NCBI GenBank assembly: GCA_043816765.1
Contig: JBDRHN010000065.1
Location: 1 to 55,545, forward strand
Origin: a bacterium
Lineage (GTDB): Bacteria; Patescibacteriota; Patescibacteriia; JBDRHN01
Length of the DNA: 55,545 bases
Direction: 5' to 3'
Program-made: the position numbers and the translations under genes
The notes under the pieces: model-generated
The model's database searches: none
Seen by the model: only the letters and a program-made list of their open reading frames with translations
What the model was told of the DNA's origin: nothing
Shown: piece after piece, positions 18,009-38,337 of the stretch
Layout of the letters: every line of letters begins with the position of its first letter
How positions within the stretch are numbered: the first letter of the stretch is position 1

Positions 18009-19886
18009 TCAATCCCTTGTCGGCGGAATTTCATAATATTTTAAAATAAACTCTGCTAATTTTTTAAAAATAGGCGCTGTTGTCTGAGACGCAAACTTGA
18101 TTCCTTCTCCTTTCGGATTATTAATTTTTATTAAAACCACAAACTGCGGATCATCAATAGGACCAAATCCTGCAAATGAATGATTAAACTTATCTTCAGA
18201 ATATCCGCCGCCAGCATCGGAAACCTGCGCCGTTCCAGTCTTTCCAGCCAAATGATACCCCTTAACACCAGCCATCTTAGAATGACCCTCATTAATAACA
18301 GAAACAAGCATAGCCTTTAGCAACGTTGCCGCTCTCGGTGAAATAACCTGCCTTATCTGCTTTGGCATCGTCTTTGTTCTTTTGCCTTCAAAATCAACAA
18401 TTTCATCAACTAAATAAGGTTTCATCAATTTCCCGTCATTGGCAATAGCTGCAAAAGCGTTAATCATCTGAATGGGCGTAACAGTAATCCCCTGCCCAAA
18501 AGACGCGGTAAAAGTATAAACATCATTCAAGTTCTCCAAAGAATTAATGTCGCCAAGCGCCTCTCCGCCTAATTCAATTCCAACCTTGCTCCCAAAGCCG
18601 AATTTTTTGACATAATTTAAAAATTCTTCATTCCCAACCTGCTTAGCCGCAAAAATCGCTCCAGTGTTCAAAGACTTTTCCAGTACCTGTGTCATGGTTT
18701 GCCATCCATTTGCCATGCCATCAGAATTTCTAATCGTGAAACGGTCAACCTTAATAAAACCTTCGTCGTTATATTTTGTATCCGGCGCAACCTTGTCTAA
18801 ATCAAGAGCCGACGCCATAGTAACAGCCTTAAATATTGAACCGGGTTCATAAGTATGTAAAATAGCTTGATTATTAAATACGCTTATATTCCCGCCAGCC
18901 TTACTATAAGTATTAGGATCAAAATCAGGATAATTAACCATTGCTAAAATGGCCCCGGTTCTTGGCTGCATCACTATAATTGTACCCTCTTCTATCTTAT
19001 AATCGCCAACCGCTTTTTGCAAATATTCATAAGCCTTAAACTGTATCGCGCGATCAATCGTAAGATACAAATCAGAACCATTTTTTGCTTCAACAAAATC
19101 AACATTCCCCAAAATAATTGGATTCCCTTTGGCTCCCTCTTCGCCATATAAATGCCCTGAGGTTCCCGCTAAAATATCATCAAAATACCCCTCCAAACCG
19201 TATTGTCCGATACTTTTTTCCTCATCATAACGGACAAAACCCAAAATGTGGCTCTCTATATTATTATCGGGGTAATAACGTCGCAACTCCTTCGCATCAT
19301 AAATTCCTGTAATTTTAAATTGATTAATTTCGTCAACGGTTTCTATGTCAACCTTTTTCTTTAAAGATTCATAAGGATCATCTTTTTTATTTAATTTACT
19401 TAATAAAATTTTAAAATTCTCATCTTCATCTAATTTTTCCCCCTTTCGAAAAGGGGGGCTGGGGGGATTTTCGCCAACAACCTCTTCTTCTTCTTCTTTA
19501 GCTTCTGCTATTTCTTCTTTGAATAACAAAGGATATATCTCTCGAGCTGCATTGTCCGGTTCTTTAATTAATTTTGGCTGAGCATAAATTAATGCGTATT
19601 CTTTATTAACAGCCAAAGGGAAAAATTTATCATCTCCATTGCCATCTTTTTCTTTGACAAAAATCCTTCCGCGCGAAGGAAATAATTTTTGATAAATTTC
19701 ATGTTGGCCAGAAGCTAAAACGTCATACATATCCCTATGTATCACCTGCAAATCAAACAGCCTTAAAACAGTAATAAGTATTACTGCGATTATAAATAAT
19801 TTTAAAACCGCAACACGCCAATTTTTTATTTTTTCTATTCTTTTTGAATTATTTTTTTTTATATACCTCATGTCTCGCCATTTCAA
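18009..19886 (-). CDS. ftsI: Class B penicillin-binding protein (FtsI/PBP2-type transpeptidase); probable true start is the ATG at 19871
   Basis: 625 aa. N-terminal TM anchor, SxxK (GSIFK), SxN (KSLNTG) and KTGT (AGKTGTA). dcw context. Confidence 0.9.
   Translation of the reverse strand: MKWRDMRYIKKNNSKRIEKIKNWRVAVLKLFIIAVILITVLRLFDLQVIHRDMYDVLASGQHEIYQKLFPSRGRIFVKEKDGNGDDKFFPLAVNKEYALIYAQPKLIKEPDNAAREIYPLLFKEEIAEAKEEEEEVVGENPPSPPFRKGEKLDEDENFKILLSKLNKKDDPYESLKKKVDIETVDEINQFKITGIYDAKELRRYYPDNNIESHILGFVRYDEEKSIGQYGLEGYFDDILAGTSGHLYGEEGAKGNPIILGNVDFVEAKNGSDLYLTIDRAIQFKAYEYLQKAVGDYKIEEGTIIVMQPRTGAILAMVNYPDFDPNTYSKAGGNISVFNNQAILHTYEPGSIFKAVTMASALDLDKVAPDTKYNDEGFIKVDRFTIRNSDGMANGWQTMTQVLEKSLNTGAIFAAKQVGNEEFLNYVKKFGFGSKVGIELGGEALGDINSLENLNDVYTFTASFGQGITVTPIQMINAFAAIANDGKLMKPYLVDEIVDFEGKRTKTMPKQIRQVISPRAATLLKAMLVSVINEGHSKMAGVKGYHLAGKTGTAQVSDAGGGYSEDKFNHSFAGFGPIDDPQFVVLIKINNPKGEGIKFASQTTAPIFKKLAEFILKYYEIPPTRD
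19439..19466. repeat. GC-only C6/G6 palindromic element, in frame within ftsI
   Basis: CCCCC-TTTCGAAAA-GGGGGG-CT-GGGGGG. The gene strand reads ENPPSPPFRKGE (residues 139-150). Confidence 0.9.
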
Positions 19887-19888
19887 AA

Positions 19889-19987
19889 AATAAATTAAGC
19901 GCTAACGCGCGCATTATCTTGGGTAGGTGCCAGCAATTGCTGGCATCTACCCGTGCAATATTCAAATTCCTCTGCAATAAATTAAGC
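19889..19987. repeat. GC-hairpin element with conserved flanks (family copy 1), flanked by a 12-nt direct repeat
   Basis: 5' box GCGCTAACGCGCGCAT, hairpin GGGTAGGTGCCAGCAATTGCTGGCATCTACCC (19921-19952), 3' box GCAATATTCAAATTCCTCTGCAA. AATAAATTAAGC occurs at 19889-19900 and 19976-19987. Confidence 0.85.
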
Positions 19988-20009
19988 CTTACGGCGGTAC
20001 ATGCGTTTT

Positions 20010-20357
20010 CTAACGAACTGCCACAATAGAACTTGCGCGATCAATATGCGCGGCTTGACTGCCGTCAATCATATTAAGTTCAACAATTTTATCGCCGATA
20101 TTAAACATTGATTGAAACTCAAGCGCGTTCACCTCAAGCTGTCTGTTTTTTGCTTCAATTTTTGAAATCTGATTTTTTAAATCATCTATCTTATATCCTT
20201 CGGTGGCAATAAAATTAGTCTGAATTAAATAAACAATGCCCAATACGCACGCGATACCCAAAACAGACAAGTTGAAAAAAGCGGATCTTCCCTGTTTTTT
20301 CTTCATCCTTATTTTTCTGCATTTTTCTTGAGTTTTTGATAATGGAGTCTTAGGCAT
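20010..20357 (-). CDS. ftsL: FtsL-like cell-division protein (single TM plus coiled coil); trimmed from the ORF-track start at 20495
   Basis: The position between rsmH and ftsI; a basic N-terminus, TM SAFFNLSVLGIACVLGIVYLI, then the coiled coil DDLKNQISKIEAKNRQLE. The upstream 46 codons are translated repeats. Confidence 0.55.
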   Translation of the reverse strand: MPKTPLSKTQEKCRKIRMKKKQGRSAFFNLSVLGIACVLGIVYLIQTNFIATEGYKIDDLKNQISKIEAKNRQLEVNALEFQSMFNIGDKIVELNMIDGSQAAHIDRASSIVAVR

Positions 20358-20371
20358 AACTTGCAACTTAT

Positions 20372-20413
20372 AACTTGGAACTTGGAACTTGGAACTTGGA
20401 ACTTGGAACTTGG
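20372..20413. repeat. Tandem heptanucleotide AACTTGG x6
   Basis: Six perfect units in the rsmH-ftsL spacer, followed at about 20448-20490 by GACTTTATG/GACTTTACG words. Confidence 0.9.
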
Positions 20414-20491
20414 AACACAAATTATAAATTTTAAATCCCAATAAACTTTTAACTTTATGGACTTTACGGACTTTATGGACTTTCGACTTCG

Positions 20492-21493
20492 TCACACTCG
20501 TTCCGCCACTCTCATCTTCGCGCTTCTGCTTCGCGGATTATTTTTTACCTCTTCCTCGTTGGGAGTAACAGGTTTTCTAGTTAATATTCTTAATTTTGGA
20601 TAACCCTCGCACTTGCAAATCGGAAACGACGGCGGACAGATGCAAGATCTGCTTTCTTTCGCAAAAAACTGTTTTACAATCCTATCTTCAAGCGAGTGAA
20701 AAGATATTACCGCGACCTTCCCGCCCTTTTCTAAAATTTGCAAAATCTGCGGCAAAACAGCGACTAAATTTTCCAGCTCTTCATTAACAGCTATTCGCAA
20801 CGCCTGAAACACTCTCGTGGCTGGGTGTGTTTTTCTAAAATTAAATTTTAATGGAATATTACCGCTTATTATCTTTGTTAACTTTTGCGTGCTATCAATC
20901 AATTCTTCACCGCGAAATTTTACAATTGCTCTAGCAATCTGTCTTGCAAAAATCTCTTCCCCATATTTCCTAAAAATATTCTCCAACTTTTTTTCCGACC
21001 ATTTATTAATCACCTCAGATGCCTTAAACTTGGAATCTTGATCAAAATTCATATCTAAATAACCATCTTTTTTAAATGAAAAACCTCTGCTGGGTTCATC
21101 AAACTGCCGTGAAGAAACACCCAAATCCAACAAAATACCATGCACCGGCAAGCCAGAAAAATTCTTATTATAAATATCAGTTAAATTTTTAAAATTATCC
21201 TGAACCAAAACTAAATTTTTTGCCATTCCCCCCTGACAAGGGGGGCTAGGGGGGTTTTCCTGTTTGTTGATTTTATCTTTTTTATGCAACAAACCAACTT
21301 TCAATTTTACAGCTTCAATAGCCTCTTTGTCCAAATCAATTCCCAACACTTTCCCTTTTTGCCCAACTCTTTTTAAAATCTCCAAAGTATGACCGCCCCC
21401 GCCCAATGTGCAATCAATAAAATTCTGATTAGGCTTTGGATCCAAAAAGCCAATTACCTCTTTTTTTAATACTGAAATATGATGATAATCCAT
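20492..21493 (-). CDS. rsmH: 16S rRNA (cytosine1402-N4)-methyltransferase RsmH; start moved to MDYHHISVL
   Basis: HISVLKKEVIGFL, the SAM motif DCTLGGGGHT, and ISFHSLEDRIVK. The listed N-terminal 67 codons run through repeat DNA and overlap mraZ. Confidence 0.9.
   Translation of the reverse strand: MDYHHISVLKKEVIGFLDPKPNQNFIDCTLGGGGHTLEILKRVGQKGKVLGIDLDKEAIEAVKLKVGLLHKKDKINKQENPPSPPCQGGMAKNLVLVQDNFKNLTDIYNKNFSGLPVHGILLDLGVSSRQFDEPSRGFSFKKDGYLDMNFDQDSKFKASEVINKWSEKKLENIFRKYGEEIFARQIARAIVKFRGEELIDSTQKLTKIISGNIPLKFNFRKTHPATRVFQALRIAVNEELENLVAVLPQILQILEKGGKVAVISFHSLEDRIVKQFFAKESRSCICPPSFPICKCEGYPKLRILTRKPVTPNEEEVKNNPRSRSAKMRVAERV
21228..21254. repeat. GC-only C6/G6 palindromic element, in frame within rsmH
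   Basis: CCCCCC-TGACAA-GGGGGG-CTA-GGGGGG. The gene strand reads ENPPSPPCQGG (ORF-track residues 146-156). Confidence 0.9.
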
Positions 21494-21498
21494 ACATA

Positions 21499-21653
21499 CT
21501 GTCATCCTGAGCGACTTATAATCAAAACTCAAAAGATAAAAAATTATTATTATTTTATAAAGTTGAAAAATAAAACGATCTAAGCGAAGGATCCCGACGT
21601 TTTTGCAATTACAACGAGATTCTTTTCCGTCAGCCGACGGATCAGAATGACAG
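21499..21653. repeat. Composite palindromic element filling the mraZ-rsmH spacer
   Basis: Outer inverted repeat CTGTCATCCTGA (21499-21510) / TCAGAATGACAG (21642-21653). Inner 16-nt palindrome TCCGTCAGCCGACGGA (21626-21641). Confidence 0.75.
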
Positions 21654-21659
21654 GTTTGC

Positions 21660-22106
21660 CTAGATACTTTCCCCTTCTCCCAAACTCTCACCAAGTCTTT
21701 CCGCTATCTCATCGCTCTGATTTTCTGTCTCTTTTTTATAATCCTCCCATTTATCTTCATCCCAAATTTCAATCCTGTTATACAAACCCGCAATCACCGC
21801 TTTTCTGCTAAGCCCGCTATATTTTCGCAAATACTCAGGCAAAATAATTCTCCCCTGCTTATCTAGCTCAACCTCCATCGCGCCAGCCAACATTAAACGA
21901 GAATACGCTCTAGTATTTTTTTGGCTAACGGGCAGTTTCGCAATCTTTTGCGCAATCGTTTCCCACTCAGATTTTGTATAAAGAAACAAACATTCATCAA
22001 GCCCCCTAGTAACCACAGCGCCATTTGCCAATTCATTACGAAATTTAACCGGTATGGCCAACCGACCTTTTTCATCCATAGAATGATTGTATTCTCCTAA
22101 AAACAT
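21660..22106 (-). CDS. mraZ: Transcriptional regulator MraZ; start moved to MFLGEYNHS
   Basis: Two DxxxR SpoVT/AbrB-like repeats (DEKGRLAIP, DKQGRIILP). First gene of the dcw block. Confidence 0.9.
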   Translation of the reverse strand: MFLGEYNHSMDEKGRLAIPVKFRNELANGAVVTRGLDECLFLYTKSEWETIAQKIAKLPVSQKNTRAYSRLMLAGAMEVELDKQGRIILPEYLRKYSGLSRKAVIAGLYNRIEIWDEDKWEDYKKETENQSDEIAERLGESLGEGESI

Positions 22107-22116
22107 AAATTTATTG

Positions 22117-22163
22117 GCGGGATTTGCAGAGATGAGGCAATGCCTCGTCTCTGCAAATCCCGC
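22117..22163. repeat. 23-bp-stem hairpin 11 nt upstream of the mraZ ATG
   Basis: GCGGGATTTGCAGAGATGAGGCA / TGCCTCGTCTCTGCAAATCCCGC, with one G-U type mismatch. Confidence 0.85.
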
Positions 22164-22166
22164 AAT

Positions 22167-22215
22167 TTTATCCACAGAAAACATTACTTATCCCCACTTT
22201 TATCCACTTTTCACC
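22167..22215 (-). promoter_or_regulatory. Putative MraZ operator: phased AAAGTGG direct repeats upstream of mraZ
   Basis: The gene strand reads AAGGTGAAAAGTGGATAAAAGTGGGGATAAG, with two AAAGTGG boxes exactly 10 nt apart, plus a GTGGATAAA box 22 nt downstream. This resembles published MraZ boxes (AAAGTG[G/T] / TGGGN repeats). Confidence 0.45.
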
Positions 22216-22501: not shown

Positions 22502-23956
22502 TCACTCCCCCCTCCCCCTCAAATTCAAAACCTCCCCAACAAGCCCAACCCTCACTCCCCCAATCAAAAACATCACCCCAAAATACACGGCAACCGCCAA
22601 CGGAATAATAATAAATAGATTCAACCGCGACATAAAATATAGAAACAAAGCCATCACCCCGCTGGCAACTATAGACTTAAGCAAAACAGTAAACTTCGGC
22701 CAACGTTTAACTGTTTTTACAACCATTAGAAAAGACAAAACAGTAATCAAAGTTTCAGAATAAAGAGTTACACCCACAGCTCCCCAATAAGAATACAAAG
22801 GGATAAAAATAAAATAACCAAAAAGCGAAGTAACCGCCGCAAATAAATATCCCCGCATCATACTCTTCTGCTTATCAATAGCAACAACGCTATGGCTGAA
22901 AACATTACCAATATAAATCATCCCAAGAGCGATAATCAAAACGCGAAGAACAGAGCCGGAACCCTCAAACTCTTTACCAGCTATCAAAACCATAATCGGC
23001 TTTGATAAAAAAATAACCCCGACAACTAAAGGCGCCGCGATAATTGTAAGCGCGTCAAACCCCTTTTGCAAAATAGACATAAAACGTTCCTTGTTATTTT
23101 CCGCCCACGCCAAAGACAAAATCGGCAAAAGCAAACCGACAAACAAATATGGAAAAACAGTTAGAACATCAATCGCGCGATAAGCCGCCCCGTAAATTCC
23201 AACAACATCCTGCTTGTAATACAAAGATAAAATTAAAATATCCGCCTTTAGATAAACCAAATTAAAAATAATAGAAAGAGAAAGCGGCCACGATCTCTTG
23301 AAAATTTCTTTCCAAACGGAAAGCTGAACCAAAAAACGCACCCGAACAAATTTACGCGACCAATAAAATAGTAAAACAAAATGAATCAAATGCGACAAAA
23401 CCAAAAACCCCAAAACGCCGTATAAATTCCAATTCTTTATAGTTACCAGATAAACCCCAGCCAAAAAAGACGCCTTTGACACAACATCAGAAATAGCCGG
23501 TTTGTTCATTTCTATATTTTTCTGAAAAACGCTTTGAAGAATCTGAACCAAAGAGATACATAAAAAACCGACACAGCAAATCAAAACGCCATATTTTACC
23601 TGCGCTGGATACGGAAAAAACCAAACAACAATCGGAGCAATACATAACAAAACAAAAACAGAAACCAAACGCAAAGTAAAAATATTACTGAAAATATCAT
23701 TTGTCTTTTGTTGATGAACAACTTCATCTTTATCTGTAATTTCAGAAATTAGCTGAACTGACATTAGATTCAAACCGAGGTCAGCCAAAATACTGAACAA
23801 CTGCAAAAAAGTAAAAATCGTAACATAATTTCCAAAACCTTCTACGCCCAAATAGCGAGTAATTAAACCTAAACTAATCAAACTAAAAAACAGACCGATT
23901 CCCCTTCCGAGAATCTGCCAAAAAGTATTTTTAGCGATTTTATGCGTTAAACTCAT
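22502..23956 (-). CDS. MOP-superfamily oligosaccharide/polysaccharide flippase (Wzx-like)
   Basis: 484 aa, about 12-14 predicted TM segments, N-terminus KNTFWQILGRGIGLFFSL typical of the family. Confidence 0.7.
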   Translation of the reverse strand: MSLTHKIAKNTFWQILGRGIGLFFSLISLGLITRYLGVEGFGNYVTIFTFLQLFSILADLGLNLMSVQLISEITDKDEVVHQQKTNDIFSNIFTLRLVSVFVLLCIAPIVVWFFPYPAQVKYGVLICCVGFLCISLVQILQSVFQKNIEMNKPAISDVVSKASFLAGVYLVTIKNWNLYGVLGFLVLSHLIHFVLLFYWSRKFVRVRFLVQLSVWKEIFKRSWPLSLSIIFNLVYLKADILILSLYYKQDVVGIYGAAYRAIDVLTVFPYLFVGLLLPILSLAWAENNKERFMSILQKGFDALTIIAAPLVVGVIFLSKPIMVLIAGKEFEGSGSVLRVLIIALGMIYIGNVFSHSVVAIDKQKSMMRGYLFAAVTSLFGYFIFIPLYSYWGAVGVTLYSETLITVLSFLMVVKTVKRWPKFTVLLKSIVASGVMALFLYFMSRLNLFIIIPLAVAVYFGVMFLIGGVRVGLVGEVLNLRGRGE

Positions 23957-24171: not shown

Positions 24172-24621
24172 TTAATCAATAATAAAAGGACTGTCTTCAT
24201 CTGTTTCCCACCTGATTTCATCAACTTCGTCTTTTTTATTTTCACCCCGATATAACTTATTAGGAAGATTTATCACAAGTCCTTGTTCTTCTGATATGCA
24301 TTTGTAGCCATGAACTACGCCTGGAGGGACAATTACGGACACGGGATTGCCCTCGCCAACTTCATAGGTTTTCAACTCCCTAAAACCCTCTTTGCCTTGA
24401 CGATTTTCCCAAAGATAAAGTCTGAATTTTCCTTGTTCCAAAAATATAAAAAAATCGGACTGGTTTTTATGTTCGTGCGGACCGCGCGCGACGCCAGATT
24501 TTGTTACAGAAACATATCCCATTTCCGGTTTTATGTCTGTTTCGTCTATGCGAAAAATTTCGGCTAGCCAACCGCGGTCGTCGTTATATTTTTTTAATTC
24601 TTTAATAATTACACTGTTCAT
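24172..24621 (-). CDS. dTDP-4-dehydrorhamnose 3,5-epimerase-family cupin (RmlC-like); start moved to MNSVIIKEL
   Basis: DDRGWLAEIF, ARGPHEHKNQSDFF, PPGVVHGYKC. The listed N-terminal 35 codons are a translated repeat element. Confidence 0.7.
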   Translation of the reverse strand: MNSVIIKELKKYNDDRGWLAEIFRIDETDIKPEMGYVSVTKSGVARGPHEHKNQSDFFIFLEQGKFRLYLWENRQGKEGFRELKTYEVGEGNPVSVIVPPGVVHGYKCISEEQGLVINLPNKLYRGENKKDEVDEIRWETDEDSPFIID

Positions 24622-24640
24622 AATTTTTAATTTTAATAAA

Positions 24641-24748
24641 TTAGGCGCCAACGTTGCGCATAGAAAGGGCAGATTTGTGGAAACCAAGCGTCCAACGTGG
24701 ACGTTCGGTTTCCACAAACCGTTCAATATTGAAATTCCTGCAAATTTA
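24641..24748. repeat. GC-hairpin element (family copy 3, long hairpin)
   Basis: GGCGCCAACGTTGCGCAT, AGAAAGGGCA, a 49-nt hairpin at 24672-24720 (GATTTGTGGAAACCAAGCGTCCA-ACG-TGGACGTTCGGTTTCCACAAACC), then GTTCAATATTGAAATTCCTGCAA. Confidence 0.85.
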
Positions 24749-28487: not shown

Positions 28488-30815
28488 ATGAAAACCTACC
28501 AAAAGTATACCATATTTACCTTTATATTAGGAATATTGGTTTTATTTGCATCTTATTCTACTACTGTTTCTGTGATTTTGCCAATTATTGGTCTAATTTA
28601 CATTATAACCGTCGCTTACTGTTTGGGCAAGTTCTTTTTTGATTGCCAAGAGTTAATAGAAAGAACAATACTAGGCTTGTTGATTGAGATTTTTGTCGTT
28701 ATGATAGTTGGTTCTGTTTTTTTCTACTGCTATGCGTTAAATAATGTTTTTTTTATTGCAACTACTCTCGGATTTCCGGTTTTAATATTTTTTTTGGAGC
28801 GTAAAAGCGTGAACAAAAAATGTTTGACTGCTTACCATCAACCCCCCCTCCGCCAGCTGGCGGACACCTTATCAGGGGGGTTACGCGAATTCCCCCCCAA
28901 CAAGGTGGGCAAGAGGGGGTTGATAGGGGGCGATTTTAGATTCAAATTTAGCAGATGCGCTGTAAAATTTGATTTATCATCGTTTATCTTAATTTCCACA
29001 TACCTAATTTCCACATCAACCCTTTTTTATATACTAATTTCCCATTCAACACTTCTGCCAATTAGAACGCCTTGGGAAGTCATTCCAAAATATTTTTTTG
29101 CCATTTTCTTCATCAACACACTCGCGCTCACAACAATACTCTTGGGCAAAAAAGATTTTAAAATAATAAATTATAAGTTAATTTTAACCTCAATCTATCT
29201 GTTTTTATTTTTTAACGTTGCTTATTTTATTTATAGGCTTGGTTATGGGTTTGACCCTTTTATCCACAGGGCAACACTAGATGTCATATTAAAAACAGGG
29301 ACAATCACGCCAAAGCCGTTTTATTATATTGGTGAATATAGTCTGGTATTTTATCTTTCAAAATTGCTTGGCGCAAATATAAACATCTTGGAAAAAATCC
29401 TTGTCCCTCTTTCGTCGGCTATTTTTTTACCCGCTGCTTTGTATTATTATTTAAATAAAAAATTTCAATCTAATAATAATTGGCTAATAATACTTTCTTT
29501 GCTTTTGATGCCTGTCGTTTTTCTGATTGTTACAACTCCGCAAAATTTAGCAAATCTGCTTTTAATTATTTTGATTATTTTTTCATTAAACTATTCGCGC
29601 TCCCCCGCGCCGCAATCCCCCGCCTCTCGGCGAGGAGACTGCGGCGGAGCGATGAATATTTTTTTAATTCTCAACGTACTCGCCATATTTTTTATTCACC
29701 CAATTTCAGGAATTCCCGCTATTTTATTTTTAATACTTTTATTTTTATGGCGCAAGGCCGCTAAGACGCAAGAAATACAAAATACTAAATTCAAAATACT
29801 AAATACTAAATACGGCAAATTATTCATAATTCTCACTTGCCTTGGATTGATATCTTTCCCAACTATTTGGCTATTTAATTCTATAATATCTCCGCAAACA
29901 GCTGTTACAATTAATTCAAAAATTTTAGCCGAGCTGATTTTATATTTGCAAAATTTAAAATTACTGTCATTTGGAAATTTGGAACAATTTAAAATTATCT
30001 TAAATATTATTTATTTTTTCTATTTTAATTTGCCGATAATTTTAATCGCTGTTTTTGTTTTTATTTTAAGAAAAATTTATCAAGAAAAAAAGGCTGTAGA
30101 ATATGTGCCATATTTAATATCTTTTCTAATCTTTTTTCTTAACTATTTAATTTTGAAAATATTTATAAATTTTGGATTTCTCATTGATTATGAGCAGGAT
30201 AATTACACAAACAGGGTCTTGCAAATATCTATTTTATTTTTGATTCCGTTCTTTTTGATTTTTATTGATAATTTTTGGGGGAAAGTTAGCCAGAAAAATT
30301 TTATAATTAAATATGTTCTAATCATAATTTTGCCAATCTGCCTTTGCGCGAGTCTTTATTTTACTTACCCGCGCCATGATAATTTTACTGCGAGCCATGG
30401 GTATAATACTTCAAAGTATGATATTATGGCGGTTGATTATATTGATAAAAATTCAAAAAAAGATTTTATTGTTTTGGCAAACCAGCAAGTTTCCGCCGCC
30501 GCGCTGCAAGAGTTTGGATTTAAAAAATATTATGACACTTGCAACGGAAAGCTGTTTTATTACCCCATTCCGACGGGAAACGCGCTTTACCAATATTATT
30601 TGGAAATGGTAAATAAAAAACCGGCCAAAGAAACGATGGAAAGCGCGATGAAATTGACCGACGTAAAAGAGGGGTATTTTATTGTGAATAAATATTGGTT
30701 TGAATCTAAGCGAATTGTTGATTTGGCAAAATTAGTTTCAGATGAATATGTTATAATCGGGGATGATGACGTTTATATTTTTAAATTTACTATGGCAAAT
30801 ACTCCAATGGATTAA
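28488..30815 (+). CDS. Large polytopic membrane protein with a C-terminal soluble domain (GT-C-like architecture; function unknown)
   Basis: 775 aa, more than 12 hydrophobic segments. Carries three GC-rich repeat insertions in frame. Confidence 0.55.
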   Translation: MKTYQKYTIFTFILGILVLFASYSTTVSVILPIIGLIYIITVAYCLGKFFFDCQELIERTILGLLIEIFVVMIVGSVFFYCYALNNVFFIATTLGFPVLIFFLERKSVNKKCLTAYHQPPLRQLADTLSGGLREFPPNKVGKRGLIGGDFRFKFSRCAVKFDLSSFILISTYLISTSTLFYILISHSTLLPIRTPWEVIPKYFFAIFFINTLALTTILLGKKDFKIINYKLILTSIYLFLFFNVAYFIYRLGYGFDPFIHRATLDVILKTGTITPKPFYYIGEYSLVFYLSKLLGANINILEKILVPLSSAIFLPAALYYYLNKKFQSNNNWLIILSLLLMPVVFLIVTTPQNLANLLLIILIIFSLNYSRSPAPQSPASRRGDCGGAMNIFLILNVLAIFFIHPISGIPAILFLILLFLWRKAAKTQEIQNTKFKILNTKYGKLFIILTCLGLISFPTIWLFNSIISPQTAVTINSKILAELILYLQNLKLLSFGNLEQFKIILNIIYFFYFNLPIILIAVFVFILRKIYQEKKAVEYVPYLISFLIFFLNYLILKIFINFGFLIDYEQDNYTNRVLQISILFLIPFFLIFIDNFWGKVSQKNFIIKYVLIIILPICLCASLYFTYPRHDNFTASHGYNTSKYDIMAVDYIDKNSKKDFIVLANQQVSAAALQEFGFKKYYDTCNGKLFYYPIPTGNALYQYYLEMVNKKPAKETMESAMKLTDVKEGYFIVNKYWFESKRIVDLAKLVSDEYVIIGDDDVYIFKFTMANTPMD
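28842..28930. repeat. Two degenerate C7/G6 elements in frame in the 775-aa membrane protein
   Basis: 28842-28880: C7-TC-[CCGCCAGCTGGCGG]-ACACC-TTATCA-G6. 28892-28930: C7-AACAA-GGTGGG-CAA-GAGGGGG-TTGATA-GGGGG. Together they encode PPLRQLADTLSGGLREFPPNKVGKRGLIGG. Confidence 0.8.
29596..29651. repeat. GC-rich imperfect palindrome (TIR family CGCTCC..GCCGCA / TGCGGCGGAGCG), in frame in the same membrane protein
   Basis: CGCGCTCCCCCGCGCCGCAATCCCCCGCCTCTCGGCGAGGAGACTGCGGCGGAGCG encodes (S)RSPAPQSPASRRGDCGGA. Confidence 0.85.
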
Positions 30816-32492: not shown

Positions 32493-33077
32493 TCAATACT
32501 TTATTATTTGAACTTCATCTCCAACTTTTAAATCATTATCTTTAACAAATTCCGCATTCACTTCCAAGACATAATTTATCCCCTCTTTTGACGTTGCTCT
32601 TTTTATATTCCCATTTTCCGGAATTAGCAAATTTTCGCTTATATCTATAATTTTATTGTCAGCTATCCAGATAATATCTATGGGGAAAAGCATATCTTTC
32701 ATCCAAAAAGTTCGTATTTCTTTGTCAAAATAAACAAAAAGCATTCCTTCATTTTCTCCCAGTTTTTCCCGTCCGCTTAGTCCTTGTATTTGCTCCTCTG
32801 GGGTTTCAACGACATCGGCTGTTATTGTTGTGTTATTAATTTTGATTTCCGCTTTTTTAATATTTTCATAATTATTATTTTTAACACCACAAGCCGAAAG
32901 AAAAAAAACTAGCATTATTGCGCAGAGCTGAACTTTGTTCGCTCCCCGCCAAACCCCCCAACCCCCCTTATCAGGGGGGCTATTTCGGATTCCCCCCTGA
33001 CAAGGGGGGCTAGGGGGGTTTGATGGAATACGAGATGAATTTTTAAAATTATTTTGCGGTAAATTATTTTTTTCCAT
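32493..33077 (-). CDS. DUF192 domain protein, probable lipoprotein; N-terminal 45 codons are largely repeat-derived
   Basis: GLSGREKLGENEGMLFVY...FWMKDMLFPIDIIW (DUF192), with the lipobox LSAC after a hydrophobic stretch. Confidence 0.7.
   Translation of the reverse strand: MEKNNLPQNNFKNSSRIPSNPPSPPCQGGIRNSPPDKGGWGVWRGANKVQLCAIMLVFFLSACGVKNNNYENIKKAEIKINNTTITADVVETPEEQIQGLSGREKLGENEGMLFVYFDKEIRTFWMKDMLFPIDIIWIADNKIIDISENLLIPENGNIKRATSKEGINYVLEVNAEFVKDNDLKVGDEVQIIKY
32954..33018. repeat. Two C6/G6 elements in opposite orientation, in frame at the 5' end of the DUF192 gene
   Basis: 32954-32979: C6-AA-C6-TTATCA-G6. 32992-33018: C6-TGACAA-G6-CTA-G6. The gene strand reads NPPSPPCQGGIRNSPPDKGGWGV. 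Confidence 0.9.
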
Positions 33078-36478: not shown

Positions 36479-36576
36479 ATTGGGCGCTAATGCGCATAGA
36501 AAGGGCAGGTTTGTGGAAACCGAGCGTCCAACGTGGACGCTCGGTTTCCACAAACCGTTCTACCCGCAAAAATTTA
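36478..36576. repeat. GC-hairpin element (family copy 4), near-identical to copy 3
   Basis: GGGCGCTAATGCGCAT, AGAAAGGGCA, a perfect 23-bp stem at 36508-36556 (GGTTTGTGGAAACCGAGCGTCCA-ACG-...), then GTTCTACCCGCAAAAATTTA. Lies between convergent gene ends. Confidence 0.9.
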
Positions 36577-38289: not shown

Positions 38290-38337
38290 CGTCACAGACG
38301 CTAAGTGTCTGAGCTCAGACACTTAGCGTCTGTGACG
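38290..38337. repeat. Perfect 48-nt palindrome
   Basis: CGTCACAGACGCTAAGTGTCTGAG|CTCAGACACTTAGCGTCTGTGACG, with no mismatch and no loop. Lies between the ACT-domain gene and nfu. Confidence 0.9.

Follow-up and report, generated by a model that had tools for sequence, protein, structure and literature searches.

In-frame copies of a triplex-motif repeat in essential genes of a Patescibacteria genome and their possible link to DUF559 nucleases

The window analysed here, by which we mean the whole 55,545-nt stretch of contig JBDRHN010000065.1 from a member of the Patescibacteria (35% G+C), carries six short blocks of C and G runs at four loci. The blocks resemble the intrastrand triplex motifs catalogued as BoxC, PIT, and TMECO repeats, and every copy in the window lies inside an open reading frame (ORF) whose frame is intact. 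A first-pass annotation had described the blocks as a C6/G6 palindrome residing in frame in ftsI, rsmH, and other genes. Its six sequences were verified where it placed them, the frames of the ftsI, rsmH, DUF192, and membrane-protein genes are unbroken, and the peptides it quoted were confirmed (ENPPSPPFRKGE, residues 139-150 of the ftsI ORF with TTG start, ENPPSPPCQGG, SPPDKGGWG, and PP..LSGG). The host genes and the copies within them are as follows.

18009-19886, minus strand: host gene ftsI, a PBP2-type transpeptidase (Pfam PF00905, PF03717)
20492-21694, minus strand: host ORF rsmH, the 16S rRNA m4C1402 methyltransferase (Pfam), probable ATG at 21493
28488-30815, plus strand: host gene for a 775-aa polytopic membrane protein, without a Pfam match
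32493-33077, minus strand: host gene for a DUF192 protein (Pfam)
19439-19469, plus strand: ftsI singlet, a perfect copy of the triplex motif
21228-21255, plus strand: rsmH singlet, a perfect copy of the triplex motif
32951-33020, both orientations: inverted doublet in the DUF192 gene, with a 12-nt spacer between its units, encoding the N-terminal tail
32953-32979, minus strand: left unit of the doublet, a perfect copy (CCCCCCT, loop GATA, AGGGGGG, linker TT, GGGGGGT)
32992-33019, plus strand: right unit of the doublet, a perfect copy identical with that in rsmH
28836-28960, plus strand: decayed composite doublet with flank, in frame in the 775-aa membrane-protein ORF
28849-28868, plus strand: nested insertion within the loop of the composite's left hairpin unit

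On one strand, the repeat is ordered as a pyrimidine arm, a 3-4-nt loop, a purine arm, a 2-5-nt linker, and a mirror-image purine arm with T. The ftsI copy reads CCCCC-TTTCGAAAA-GGGGGG-CT-GGGGGG at 19439-19466 and the rsmH copy reads CCCCCC-TGACAA-GGGGGG-CTA-GGGGGG at 21228-21254; the unit reaches 1-3 nt past these previously given ends, as the third arm includes the T or ATT that follows the last G-run. The rsmH copy is thus composed of CCCCCCT, loop GACA, AGGGGGG, linker CTA, and GGGGGGT. The ftsI copy comprises the pyrimidine arm CCCCCTTT (19439-19446), loop CGA, the purine arm AAAGGGGG (19450-19457), linker GCTG, and the mirror third arm GGGGGATT (19462-19469). An example oligonucleotide sequence of the triplex motif is CCCCCCTGACAAGGGGGGCTAGGGGGGT, beside the ftsI variant. 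Singlets measure approximately 27-33 nt and inverted doublets approximately 65-75 nt. A loose G6-N-G6 pattern, GGGGGGCTNGGGGG, with at most two mismatches, finds six matches in the window against 0.14 expected from shuffles.

Fold energies were computed with ViennaRNA and model the hairpin only, not the third strand. The core hairpin, C6T/AG6 closed by a GAYA tetraloop, has about -8 kcal/mol as DNA (-7.9 kcal/mol for the ftsI singlet), and the doublet at 32951-33020 folds as single-stranded DNA into a 75-nt hairpin of -31.6 kcal/mol (z = -6.9). The composite at 28836-28960, which holds two degenerate copies (28842-28880 and 28892-28930), folds with -26.3 kcal/mol (z = -3.6). Its nested insertion amounts to 21 nt when compared with another genome, L208, including the extra C of a C7 run, and contains the perfect 16-nt palindrome TCCGCCAGCTGGCGGA; at the same site L208 reads CAA-CCCCCC-TTATCA-GGGGGG, without the insert. 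One small element has here been inserted into another.

The property that sets these units apart from a plain hairpin is the third arm. The window copies represent the simplest form, C6T/AG6 with the third arm GGGGGGT, and the purine arms are paired with third arms in a mirror, triplex-compatible manner (AGGGGGG with GGGGGGT, and AAAGGGGG with GGGGGATT). The mirror relation is revealed by relatives with mixed arms, in which the third block mirrors the purine arm as in GGGGAGAGGG-tt-GGGAGAGGGG, AAAGGGAG...GAGGGATT, and AAGAGGGG-cta-GGGGAGAT. We examined 272 non-redundant hairpins whose arms consist of purines only and are internally asymmetric, accepting G opposite G and A opposite A or T. A perfect mirror copy was present on the 3' side of 111 hairpins, against 21 with a perfect direct copy on that side, 4 with a mirror copy and 3 with a direct copy on the 5' side (both perfect), and 3 with a mirror copy in the shuffled 3' flank. 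A mirror partner was found for 46/56 distinct asymmetric arm sequences. An internal A is often faced by T, which purine-motif rules permit, and the linkers in this set span 2-4 nt, or 12-23 nt when they hold a mini-hairpin of their own. A third strand of the antiparallel purine-motif kind (G·G:C, A·A:T, T·A:T) calls for exactly such a mirror purine block 3' of a pyrimidine-purine hairpin. The first-pass description as a C6/G6 palindrome is not sufficient, since the second G6 together with T forms the mirror third arm.

Such an arrangement has been described as the class II intrastrand triplex motif, Py-loop-Pu-loop-Pu (pyrimidine and purine blocks), by Holder et al. 2015 (PMC4666352). The class goes back to the PIT elements of Hoyne & Maher 2000 and to the older BoxC repeat, as summarised in that paper. 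Its ITxF definition places one pyrimidine and two purine blocks on one strand, allowing 6-15 nt per stem and 1-6 nt per loop (PMC4666352). The rsmH copy (7-nt arms, loops of 4 and 3 nt), the ftsI copy (8-nt arms, loops of 3 and 4 nt), and both DUF192-gene units (7-nt arms) fall within these limits, and the third block of the window copies is an antiparallel-compatible mirror rather than a direct repeat. We regard it as very probable that the window blocks belong to this class. TMECO oligonucleotides form a stable triplex in vitro, as judged by circular dichroism and nuclear magnetic resonance (NMR) (PMC4666352), and by analogy with this E. coli relative, to which the NMR proof is confined, the window sequences may fold in the same manner. 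A role at the RNA level is disfavoured, as purine-motif triplexes are not known in RNA; nine loci with the motif, when scanned against Rfam, matched no curated family and gave only look-alikes of microRNA hairpins below the threshold.

Alignment with orthologues indicates that the blocks are discrete insertions that are patchy among close relatives. In RsmH, approximately 18 extra residues occupy a Lys-rich surface loop in the window protein and in two relatives (P0001, 94% identical, and P0002, 81%), and the block is absent in P0003 (84%), P0004, P0005, and P0007. The rsmH copy of P0002 has decayed at the DNA level to AACCCCCCTGCCCCCTTTGTCAGGAGGG, and P0006 (locus L123) holds a copy of a different subfamily at the same site, TCCCTCC-TAAC-TCCCC-TTTGCGAAA-GGGGGG. 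The FtsI block lies in a hypervariable acidic linker; the orthologous copy is decayed in a 72% identical relative (L206), and L123 lacks one. The N-terminal tail of the DUF192 protein is a hot spot for inserts, with various G+C-rich inserts in close relatives and a plain MKK start in distant ones (P0127, P0128, P0130). Moreover, window positions 28836-28960 share about 120 nt of homology with the insert at the N-terminal end of the DUF192 gene in L208; one composite is thus found in two genomes within hosts that are unrelated, a membrane-protein gene and a DUF192 gene. The RsmH, FtsI, and DUF192 alignments accordingly show conserved protein genes with in-frame blocks that orthologues lack, and in another Parcubacteria genome (L073) the N-terminal tail of GyrA contains the in-frame copy TPLNPPLSGG. 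We infer mobility from this patchy presence and absence and not from an observed transposition event. In our judgement, the window blocks probably are or were mobile or selfish insertions rather than host-designed sequence.

Other inserts were observed near these sites. Two DUF192 relatives (P0123 and P0125) share a further recurrent G+C-rich insert in the N-terminal tail (…LRGSLPA…LAKRS…TPARSKINF) that is not of the C6/G6 type, and therefore several mini-insert families share one permissive site in this lineage. In the window, the 775-aa membrane-protein ORF also contains a 57-nt block of >79% G+C at 29595-29651 (TCGCGCTCCCCCGCGCCGCAATCCCCCGCCTCTCGGCGAGGAGACTGCGGCGGAGCG), which is in frame and reads SRSPAPQSPASRRGDCGG; it is without triplex-motif architecture and may represent a second G+C-rich insert family. 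The syntenic relative L123 has an apparently intergenic copy (AACCCCCCAACCCCCCTTATCAGGGGGG) at 18020-18056, between a PDDEXK_1 gene and a YgjP-like gene.

On the gene strand, the ftsI copy is translated as NPPSPPFRKG and the rsmH copy as NPPSPPCQGG, the latter breaking the Pfam Methyltransf_5 match near profile position 68. Location within ORFs is not significant in itself because ORFs cover 85% of the window, and the probability that four independent loci all fall in ORFs is approximately 0.52. The TGACAA/CTA variant contains TGA or TAG in 3/6 combinations of orientation and frame, and gene-borne copies use the open combinations (NPPSPPCQG, PPDKGGWG). In-frame survival is therefore the residue expected from purifying selection and not a property of the element. 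The copies occupy variable linkers or tails of their host proteins, in line with the tolerance in linkers or loops of essential proteins proposed at first pass.

The same core is present well beyond this lineage. A scan of species-representative genomes with the 18-mer core CCCCCCTGAYAAGGGGGG returned at least 120 stretches, and the consensus C6-TGAYAA-G6-N-G6-T, with nearly invariant C6/G6, is common to many phyla, among them candidate-phyla-radiation bacteria and sponge symbionts. The matches listed include Poribacteria, Nitrospinota, Nitrospirales, Geobacter, Desulfuromonadaceae, Gallionella, Rhodocyclaceae, Zoogloeaceae, Omnitrophota, Chloroflexota, Zixibacteria, metagenome-assembled genomes (MAGs) of Rickettsiales (20-30% G+C), a Paludibacter, a Firmicutes MAG, Peribacteraceae, and Parcubacteria, and several of the motif-bearing sequences are complete long-read chromosomes. 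In this same set, a second run of at least five G follows in 139/149 core matches with enough flank, after a linker of no more than 7 nt in 132 of those 139, and this second G-run is succeeded by T in 135. Inverted doublets are common in these other genomes as well. The earlier idea of a mobile element spreading in the lineage is borne out as to insertion by the patchy orthologues, and the element did not arise as a speciality of this lineage.

The family at large is also mostly intergenic: among the matches listed, 23-39% of the motif sites lie in long open frames, compared with 64-82% of random positions. The coding location of the window copies, described correctly at first pass, therefore reflects the compact Patescibacteria genome and not a preference of the element. 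An enrichment in coding sequence is rejected, given the window probability of about 0.52 and the opposite tendency in the family. Three Rickettsiales MAGs (L028, L051, and L081) have several perfect C6-TGATAA-G6-TAA-G6-TTT units in extremely AT-rich intergenic DNA; Rickettsiales is the order in which Rickettsia palindromic elements (RPEs) were described, and these units are unlike RPEs in size and form. Viral contigs gave sixteen core matches, none of them adjoining a DUF559 gene, and there is therefore no evidence for carriage by phages together with the gene discussed next.

A candidate protein partner emerged from the genes that surround the motifs. All-against-all clustering of 2,294 ORFs from 120 motif-centred loci (among the matches listed) yielded DUF559 as the only recurrent family bracketed by motifs, a protein of approximately 115 aa (PF04480, E = 2e-31) with a relative in PDB entry 3HRL. 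The DUF559 ORF is bracketed in 6/120 loci, which belong to different phyla and share 60-69% amino acid identity, in the layout [C6-TGAYAA-G6-N-G6-TT] ORF [AA-C6-N-C6-TTRTCA-G6]. No RAYT or insertion sequence (IS) transposase was recurrent among the ORFs neighbouring the motifs. From the protein side, a metagenome scan with an alignment of motif-adjacent DUF559 proteins gave 80 loci (39-64% identity); in 71 of these, one strict motif or more lies no further than 150 nt from the ORF. The motif stands upstream in 58/77, downstream in 50/77, and on both sides in 37/74, and at more than 300 nt from these ORFs only 8 motifs occur in 138,651 nt. In cultured isolates, each of the six DUF559 genes checked has flanking motifs, whose arms are specific to the lineage (Picosynechococcus PCC 7002, Deinococcus psychrotolerans, Neisseria gonorrhoeae, Azospirillum, Sphingomonas, and Sinorhizobium). 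The arm sequences vary by locus and track protein relatedness, with 51% identity in pairs of the same arm class against 45%.

Three DUF559 loci were peculiar in their position relative to other genes. In L048 (1-1971), the DUF559 ORF and its flanking motifs lie in frame inside a DNA methyltransferase ORF; in L093 (4565-5184), a SelD-like ORF carries the DUF559 ORF as a C-terminal fusion; and in L009 (3989-4409), DUF559 is situated just upstream of RseP, with the host stop codon provided by the TGA of the motif loop.

The E. coli member of the family, YcjD, is 44-50% identical to metagenomic DUF559 proteins with TMECO-type arms, which are its nearest relatives. In E. coli K-12, TMECO no. 9 (1,351,204-1,351,239) is located 168 nt downstream of ycjD, a proximity for which we estimate a chance of about 0.004 given 18 TMECO loci in 4.64 Mb. 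Copy number also varies with the gene. Strains of the E. coli phylogroups A, B1, and C possess ycjD and 19-30 TMECO each; in D, E, and F, ycjD is replaced by eefRABCD, except in ST69 and ST182, and there are 6-15 TMECO per strain; in B2, with the same replacement, there are 1-2. This correlation is suggestive only, because few evolutionary events stand behind it. Around the gene in MG1655 (1,351,040-1,351,407; L205), a partial duplicate of the ycjD 3' end is found between ycjD and TMECO no. 9 (GGAGACGGTGCTGGAGAATATTC…CTGAACCG), the ycjD stop codon falls in a degenerate pyrimidine arm (CACCCTCTCCCTGA), and a 16-bp perfect hairpin with TGACAA/TTGTCA lies upstream. In the literature searched, no paper connects DUF559 or YcjD with these repeats and none has the core sequence in its full text, and the text of Holder et al. 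makes no mention of DUF559, ycjD, or any endonuclease (PMC4666352).

The closest known relatives of the window blocks are the BoxC/PIT/TMECO repeats, with which they share the Py-loop-Pu-loop-Pu order on one strand, G/C-rich, dispersed, and highly conserved copies, inverted doublets, and a presence that varies between close relatives. Holder et al. counted 3,610 motif copies in 262 proteobacterial genomes, found G/C-rich motifs plentiful in cyanobacteria, and reported inverted doublets of types A and B, always intergenic locations in E. coli K-12, an association of motif loci with local genome variability, and transposases or integrases near the motifs as 'never found' (PMC4666352). The TMECO consensus, CCCTCNCCC-N3-6-GGGNGAGGG-N3-GGGNGAGGG, has 9-nt mixed arms (PMC4666352), whereas the arms here are C6T/AG6, or C5T3/A3G5 in ftsI. 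The window copies match neither this strict TMECO/BoxC consensus nor its intergenic location, being in frame in essential genes of a Patescibacteria genome with 35% G+C; with their homopolymeric arms, they therefore constitute another subfamily of the TMECO architecture. A further difference is the DUF559 association, as no gene tied to the repeats was found in the published TMECO work.

In organisation, the repeats resemble the REP/REPIN-RAYT systems (repetitive extragenic palindromes and their transposases). Both consist of short, structured, dispersed repeats that occur as singlets and as inverted doublets folding into long hairpins, and in both, one small nuclease-type gene is bracketed by repeats whose sequence tracks the enzyme lineage. 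However, the flanked gene here encodes a PD-(D/E)XK Vsr-fold DUF559 protein (PF04480) and not a Y1 HUH enzyme, a mirror third arm is present, the conserved 5' GTAG is absent, and the core is identical across phyla while REPs are species-specific. A bracketed Y1 HUH gene was not seen, in that no recurrent transposase occurs among the 2,294 neighbouring ORFs; this survey included no dedicated PF01797 scan. With respect to miniature inverted-repeat transposable elements (MITEs), the motif-DUF559-motif unit is a candidate autonomous element in other genomes, with none in the window, and no target-site duplication or exact boundary is definable.

RPEs are selfish palindromic DNA of about 100-150 bp that appears as in-frame peptide inserts in conserved or essential proteins. 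To our knowledge, they are confined to Rickettsia and have neither a triplex architecture nor a known enzyme. The comparison with RPEs drawn at first pass applies to behaviour, that is, to in-frame peptide inserts tolerated by conserved and even essential proteins, but not to descent: the present units measure 27-33 nt (65-75 nt as doublets), sit in a host that its best homologues place in Patescibacteria, and are set apart by size and form, not by sequence comparison. The proposal of a selfish palindrome tolerated in essential proteins thus holds in substance and is partly supported, with the element assigned to a known class of triplex-motif repeats. Yeast mitochondrial GC clusters are likewise mobile palindromes, short and made up of G and C alone, within a genome that is very rich in AT; on occasion they lie in frame in coding sequence, and free-standing endonuclease ORFs are often close by. 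They differ in being organellar and eukaryotic and in the endonuclease families involved, and we know of no mirror third arm described for them. The small dispersed repeats (SDRs) of Nostoc and related cyanobacteria, reportedly described by Elhai and colleagues in 2008, are said to be mobile hairpin repeats of 21-27 nt that insert into each other and into genes. Cyanobacterial DUF559 loci contain CCCCCC-TTTTTAA-GGGGGG-TA-GGGGGG-AT units that are SDR-like in size.

We propose, with a probability of roughly 0.6, that the window blocks are copies of a very small, dispersed, triplex-type repeat that is selfish and horizontally spread, with DUF559 as the likeliest mobilising or cognate enzyme. Single-stranded DNA of the repeat would fold into a Watson-Crick hairpin on whose purine arm the third arm lies antiparallel (G·G:C, with A·A:T or T·A:T). 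The DUF559 protein (about 115 aa, YcjD-like, with the Vsr-fold PD-(D/E)XK) would target the folded or extruded repeat in trans, its own gene being flanked by motifs as RAYT genes are by REPs. In a compact genome with about 85% ORFs, insertions would strike mostly genes, and the survivors would be those that keep the frame, avoid their own TGA or TAG triplets, and fall in a tolerant linker or tail, where they would become short Pro/Gly-rich peptides. That the DUF559 nuclease specifically recognises such motifs appears somewhat likely. It is only tentatively that we favour mobilisation of the motifs in trans, in the manner of REP/RAYT, over homing of the gene into them. With similar reserve, we suggest that DUF559/YcjD proteins may be the partners of BoxC/PIT/TMECO repeats in a cross-phylum, REP/RAYT-like system in which the nuclease would recognise a triple-helix or hairpin structure in DNA and disseminate or maintain repeats of 27-75 nt.

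Several observations weigh against this proposal. No DUF559 gene was found in the 55.5-kb window or in the contigs of close relatives examined, and the DUF559 ORFs of the C6 subfamily have no obvious start codon; they may be read through from the host frame. Genes adjacent to motifs supplied the query for the metagenome set; the isolates and E. coli do not depend on motif adjacency. The E. coli copy-number relationship is limited in the manner stated above. The orthologue alignments that had been recommended confirm an insertion in RsmH and FtsI but not a clean boundary, as the RsmH flanks are too diverged for an exact boundary or a target-site duplication to be defined. At the adk-hemH TMECO locus of E. 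coli, 2,917/5,426 genomes are filled and the others have a different intergenic segment of about 55 nt, which therefore indicates replacement of a whole segment and not a clean insertion. In vivo dimethyl sulfate footprinting did not detect the triplex (PMC4666352). Finally, flanking by motifs fits equally well with a DUF559 gene that homes into pre-existing motifs.

This last explanation is the least improbable of those competing with ours. DUF559 would then be a parasite or passenger homing to motif doublets, and the motifs would spread by other means such as slippage, template switching, recombination, or an unknown enzyme. The motif is indeed present in both orientations beside the ORF, many ORFs lie between two direct copies of the doublet, homing endonucleases with the Vsr fold (EDxHD) exist, and the adk-hemH locus resembles patch replacement rather than transposition. 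However, motifs that spread independently would not be expected to be so scarce in the E. coli lineages that lack ycjD, the arm type follows the relatedness of the proteins, and one nuclease gene combined with numerous short repeats scattered about is what REP/RAYT systems show; we therefore hold homing to be unlikely. An ordinary REP/REPIN- or MITE-type element, moved by a conventional transposase (HUH Y1 RAYT or IS) and with an incidental second G-run, would be in keeping with repeats that are short, palindromic, dispersed, and arranged in inverted doublets, and with the frequent GTAG or CTAG tetranucleotide in the linker. It is contradicted by the linker being the least conserved part, by a third arm that covaries with the stem as a mirror, which transposase-hairpin models do not predict, and by DUF559 being the sole recurrent family that is bracketed among the ORFs of the loci listed, with no recurrent transposase. 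We consider this highly improbable.

Copies could also be retained for a benefit to the host: they might make replication or transcription pause, create variation as hot spots of recombination, serve as switches of the G-quadruplex or i-motif kind, or provide useful Pro/Gly linker peptides. The perfect window copies beside decayed orthologous copies in relatives would agree with this, as would the tie between TMECO loci and local genome variability (PMC4666352). The patchy presence among close relatives argues otherwise, and the same permissive sites hold other subfamilies and even unrelated GC-rich inserts. Earlier work, as far as it is summarised in PMC4666352, reported no promoter, terminator, or polymerase effect. 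A G-quadruplex is rejected in particular, as mixed-arm variants such as GGGAGAGGG do not fit one and NMR excluded it for TMECO (PMC4666352). Host benefit is thus quite improbable as the reason for these blocks. Homopolymer G/C runs are error-prone and the assembly is of a metagenome type, so an artefact of sequencing or assembly, or chance low-complexity sequence, might be suspected; the unit is, however, present in complete long-read chromosomes and cultured isolates, independent samples hold orthologous copies with codon-level decay, and the occurrence is strongly non-random, which leaves a negligible chance for this explanation.

The window has further structured sequences. A near-perfect palindrome of about 45-49 nt, (GG)TTTGTGGAAACCGAGCGTCCA-NNN-TGGACGCTCGGTTTCCACAAA(CC), occurs in two copies, at 24674-24718 in the 5' end of ORF 24172-24726 and at 36508-36556 in an intergenic position. 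Other strong palindromes are located at 38290-38337 (48 nt, perfect) and 22117-22163 (47 nt, in ORF 21660-22184); positions 1123-1282 form an inverted repeat whose arms measure 79 nt. A C/A-rich low-complexity tract (CCCCCCTCCCCCTCAAATTCAAAACCTCCCCAACAAGCCCAACCCTCACTCCCCC) at 22502-22561, at the 3' end of ORF 22502-23956, sits in a 2-kb stretch with an unusual AT skew of +0.26.

The intrastrand triplex repeat architecture itself was already known (PMC4666352). New here are the homopolymeric C6/G6 subfamily that extends across phyla, the finding that it lies in frame within FtsI, RsmH, and GyrA of Patescibacteria, and the systematic bracketing of DUF559/YcjD genes by such motifs. The inserts in these three proteins should be treated as foreign by annotators and structural modellers. 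BoxC/PIT/TMECO repeats have been catalogued since the 1990s without an assigned origin, mobility mechanism, or partner protein, and the link to DUF559 makes the origin of the repeats directly testable in E. coli via ycjD. If the link is true, it would provide a function for DUF559 and a natural case of a protein that recognises a DNA triplex, and the repeats and their nuclease would be the first mobile-element system with an intramolecular DNA triplex as its recognition signal.

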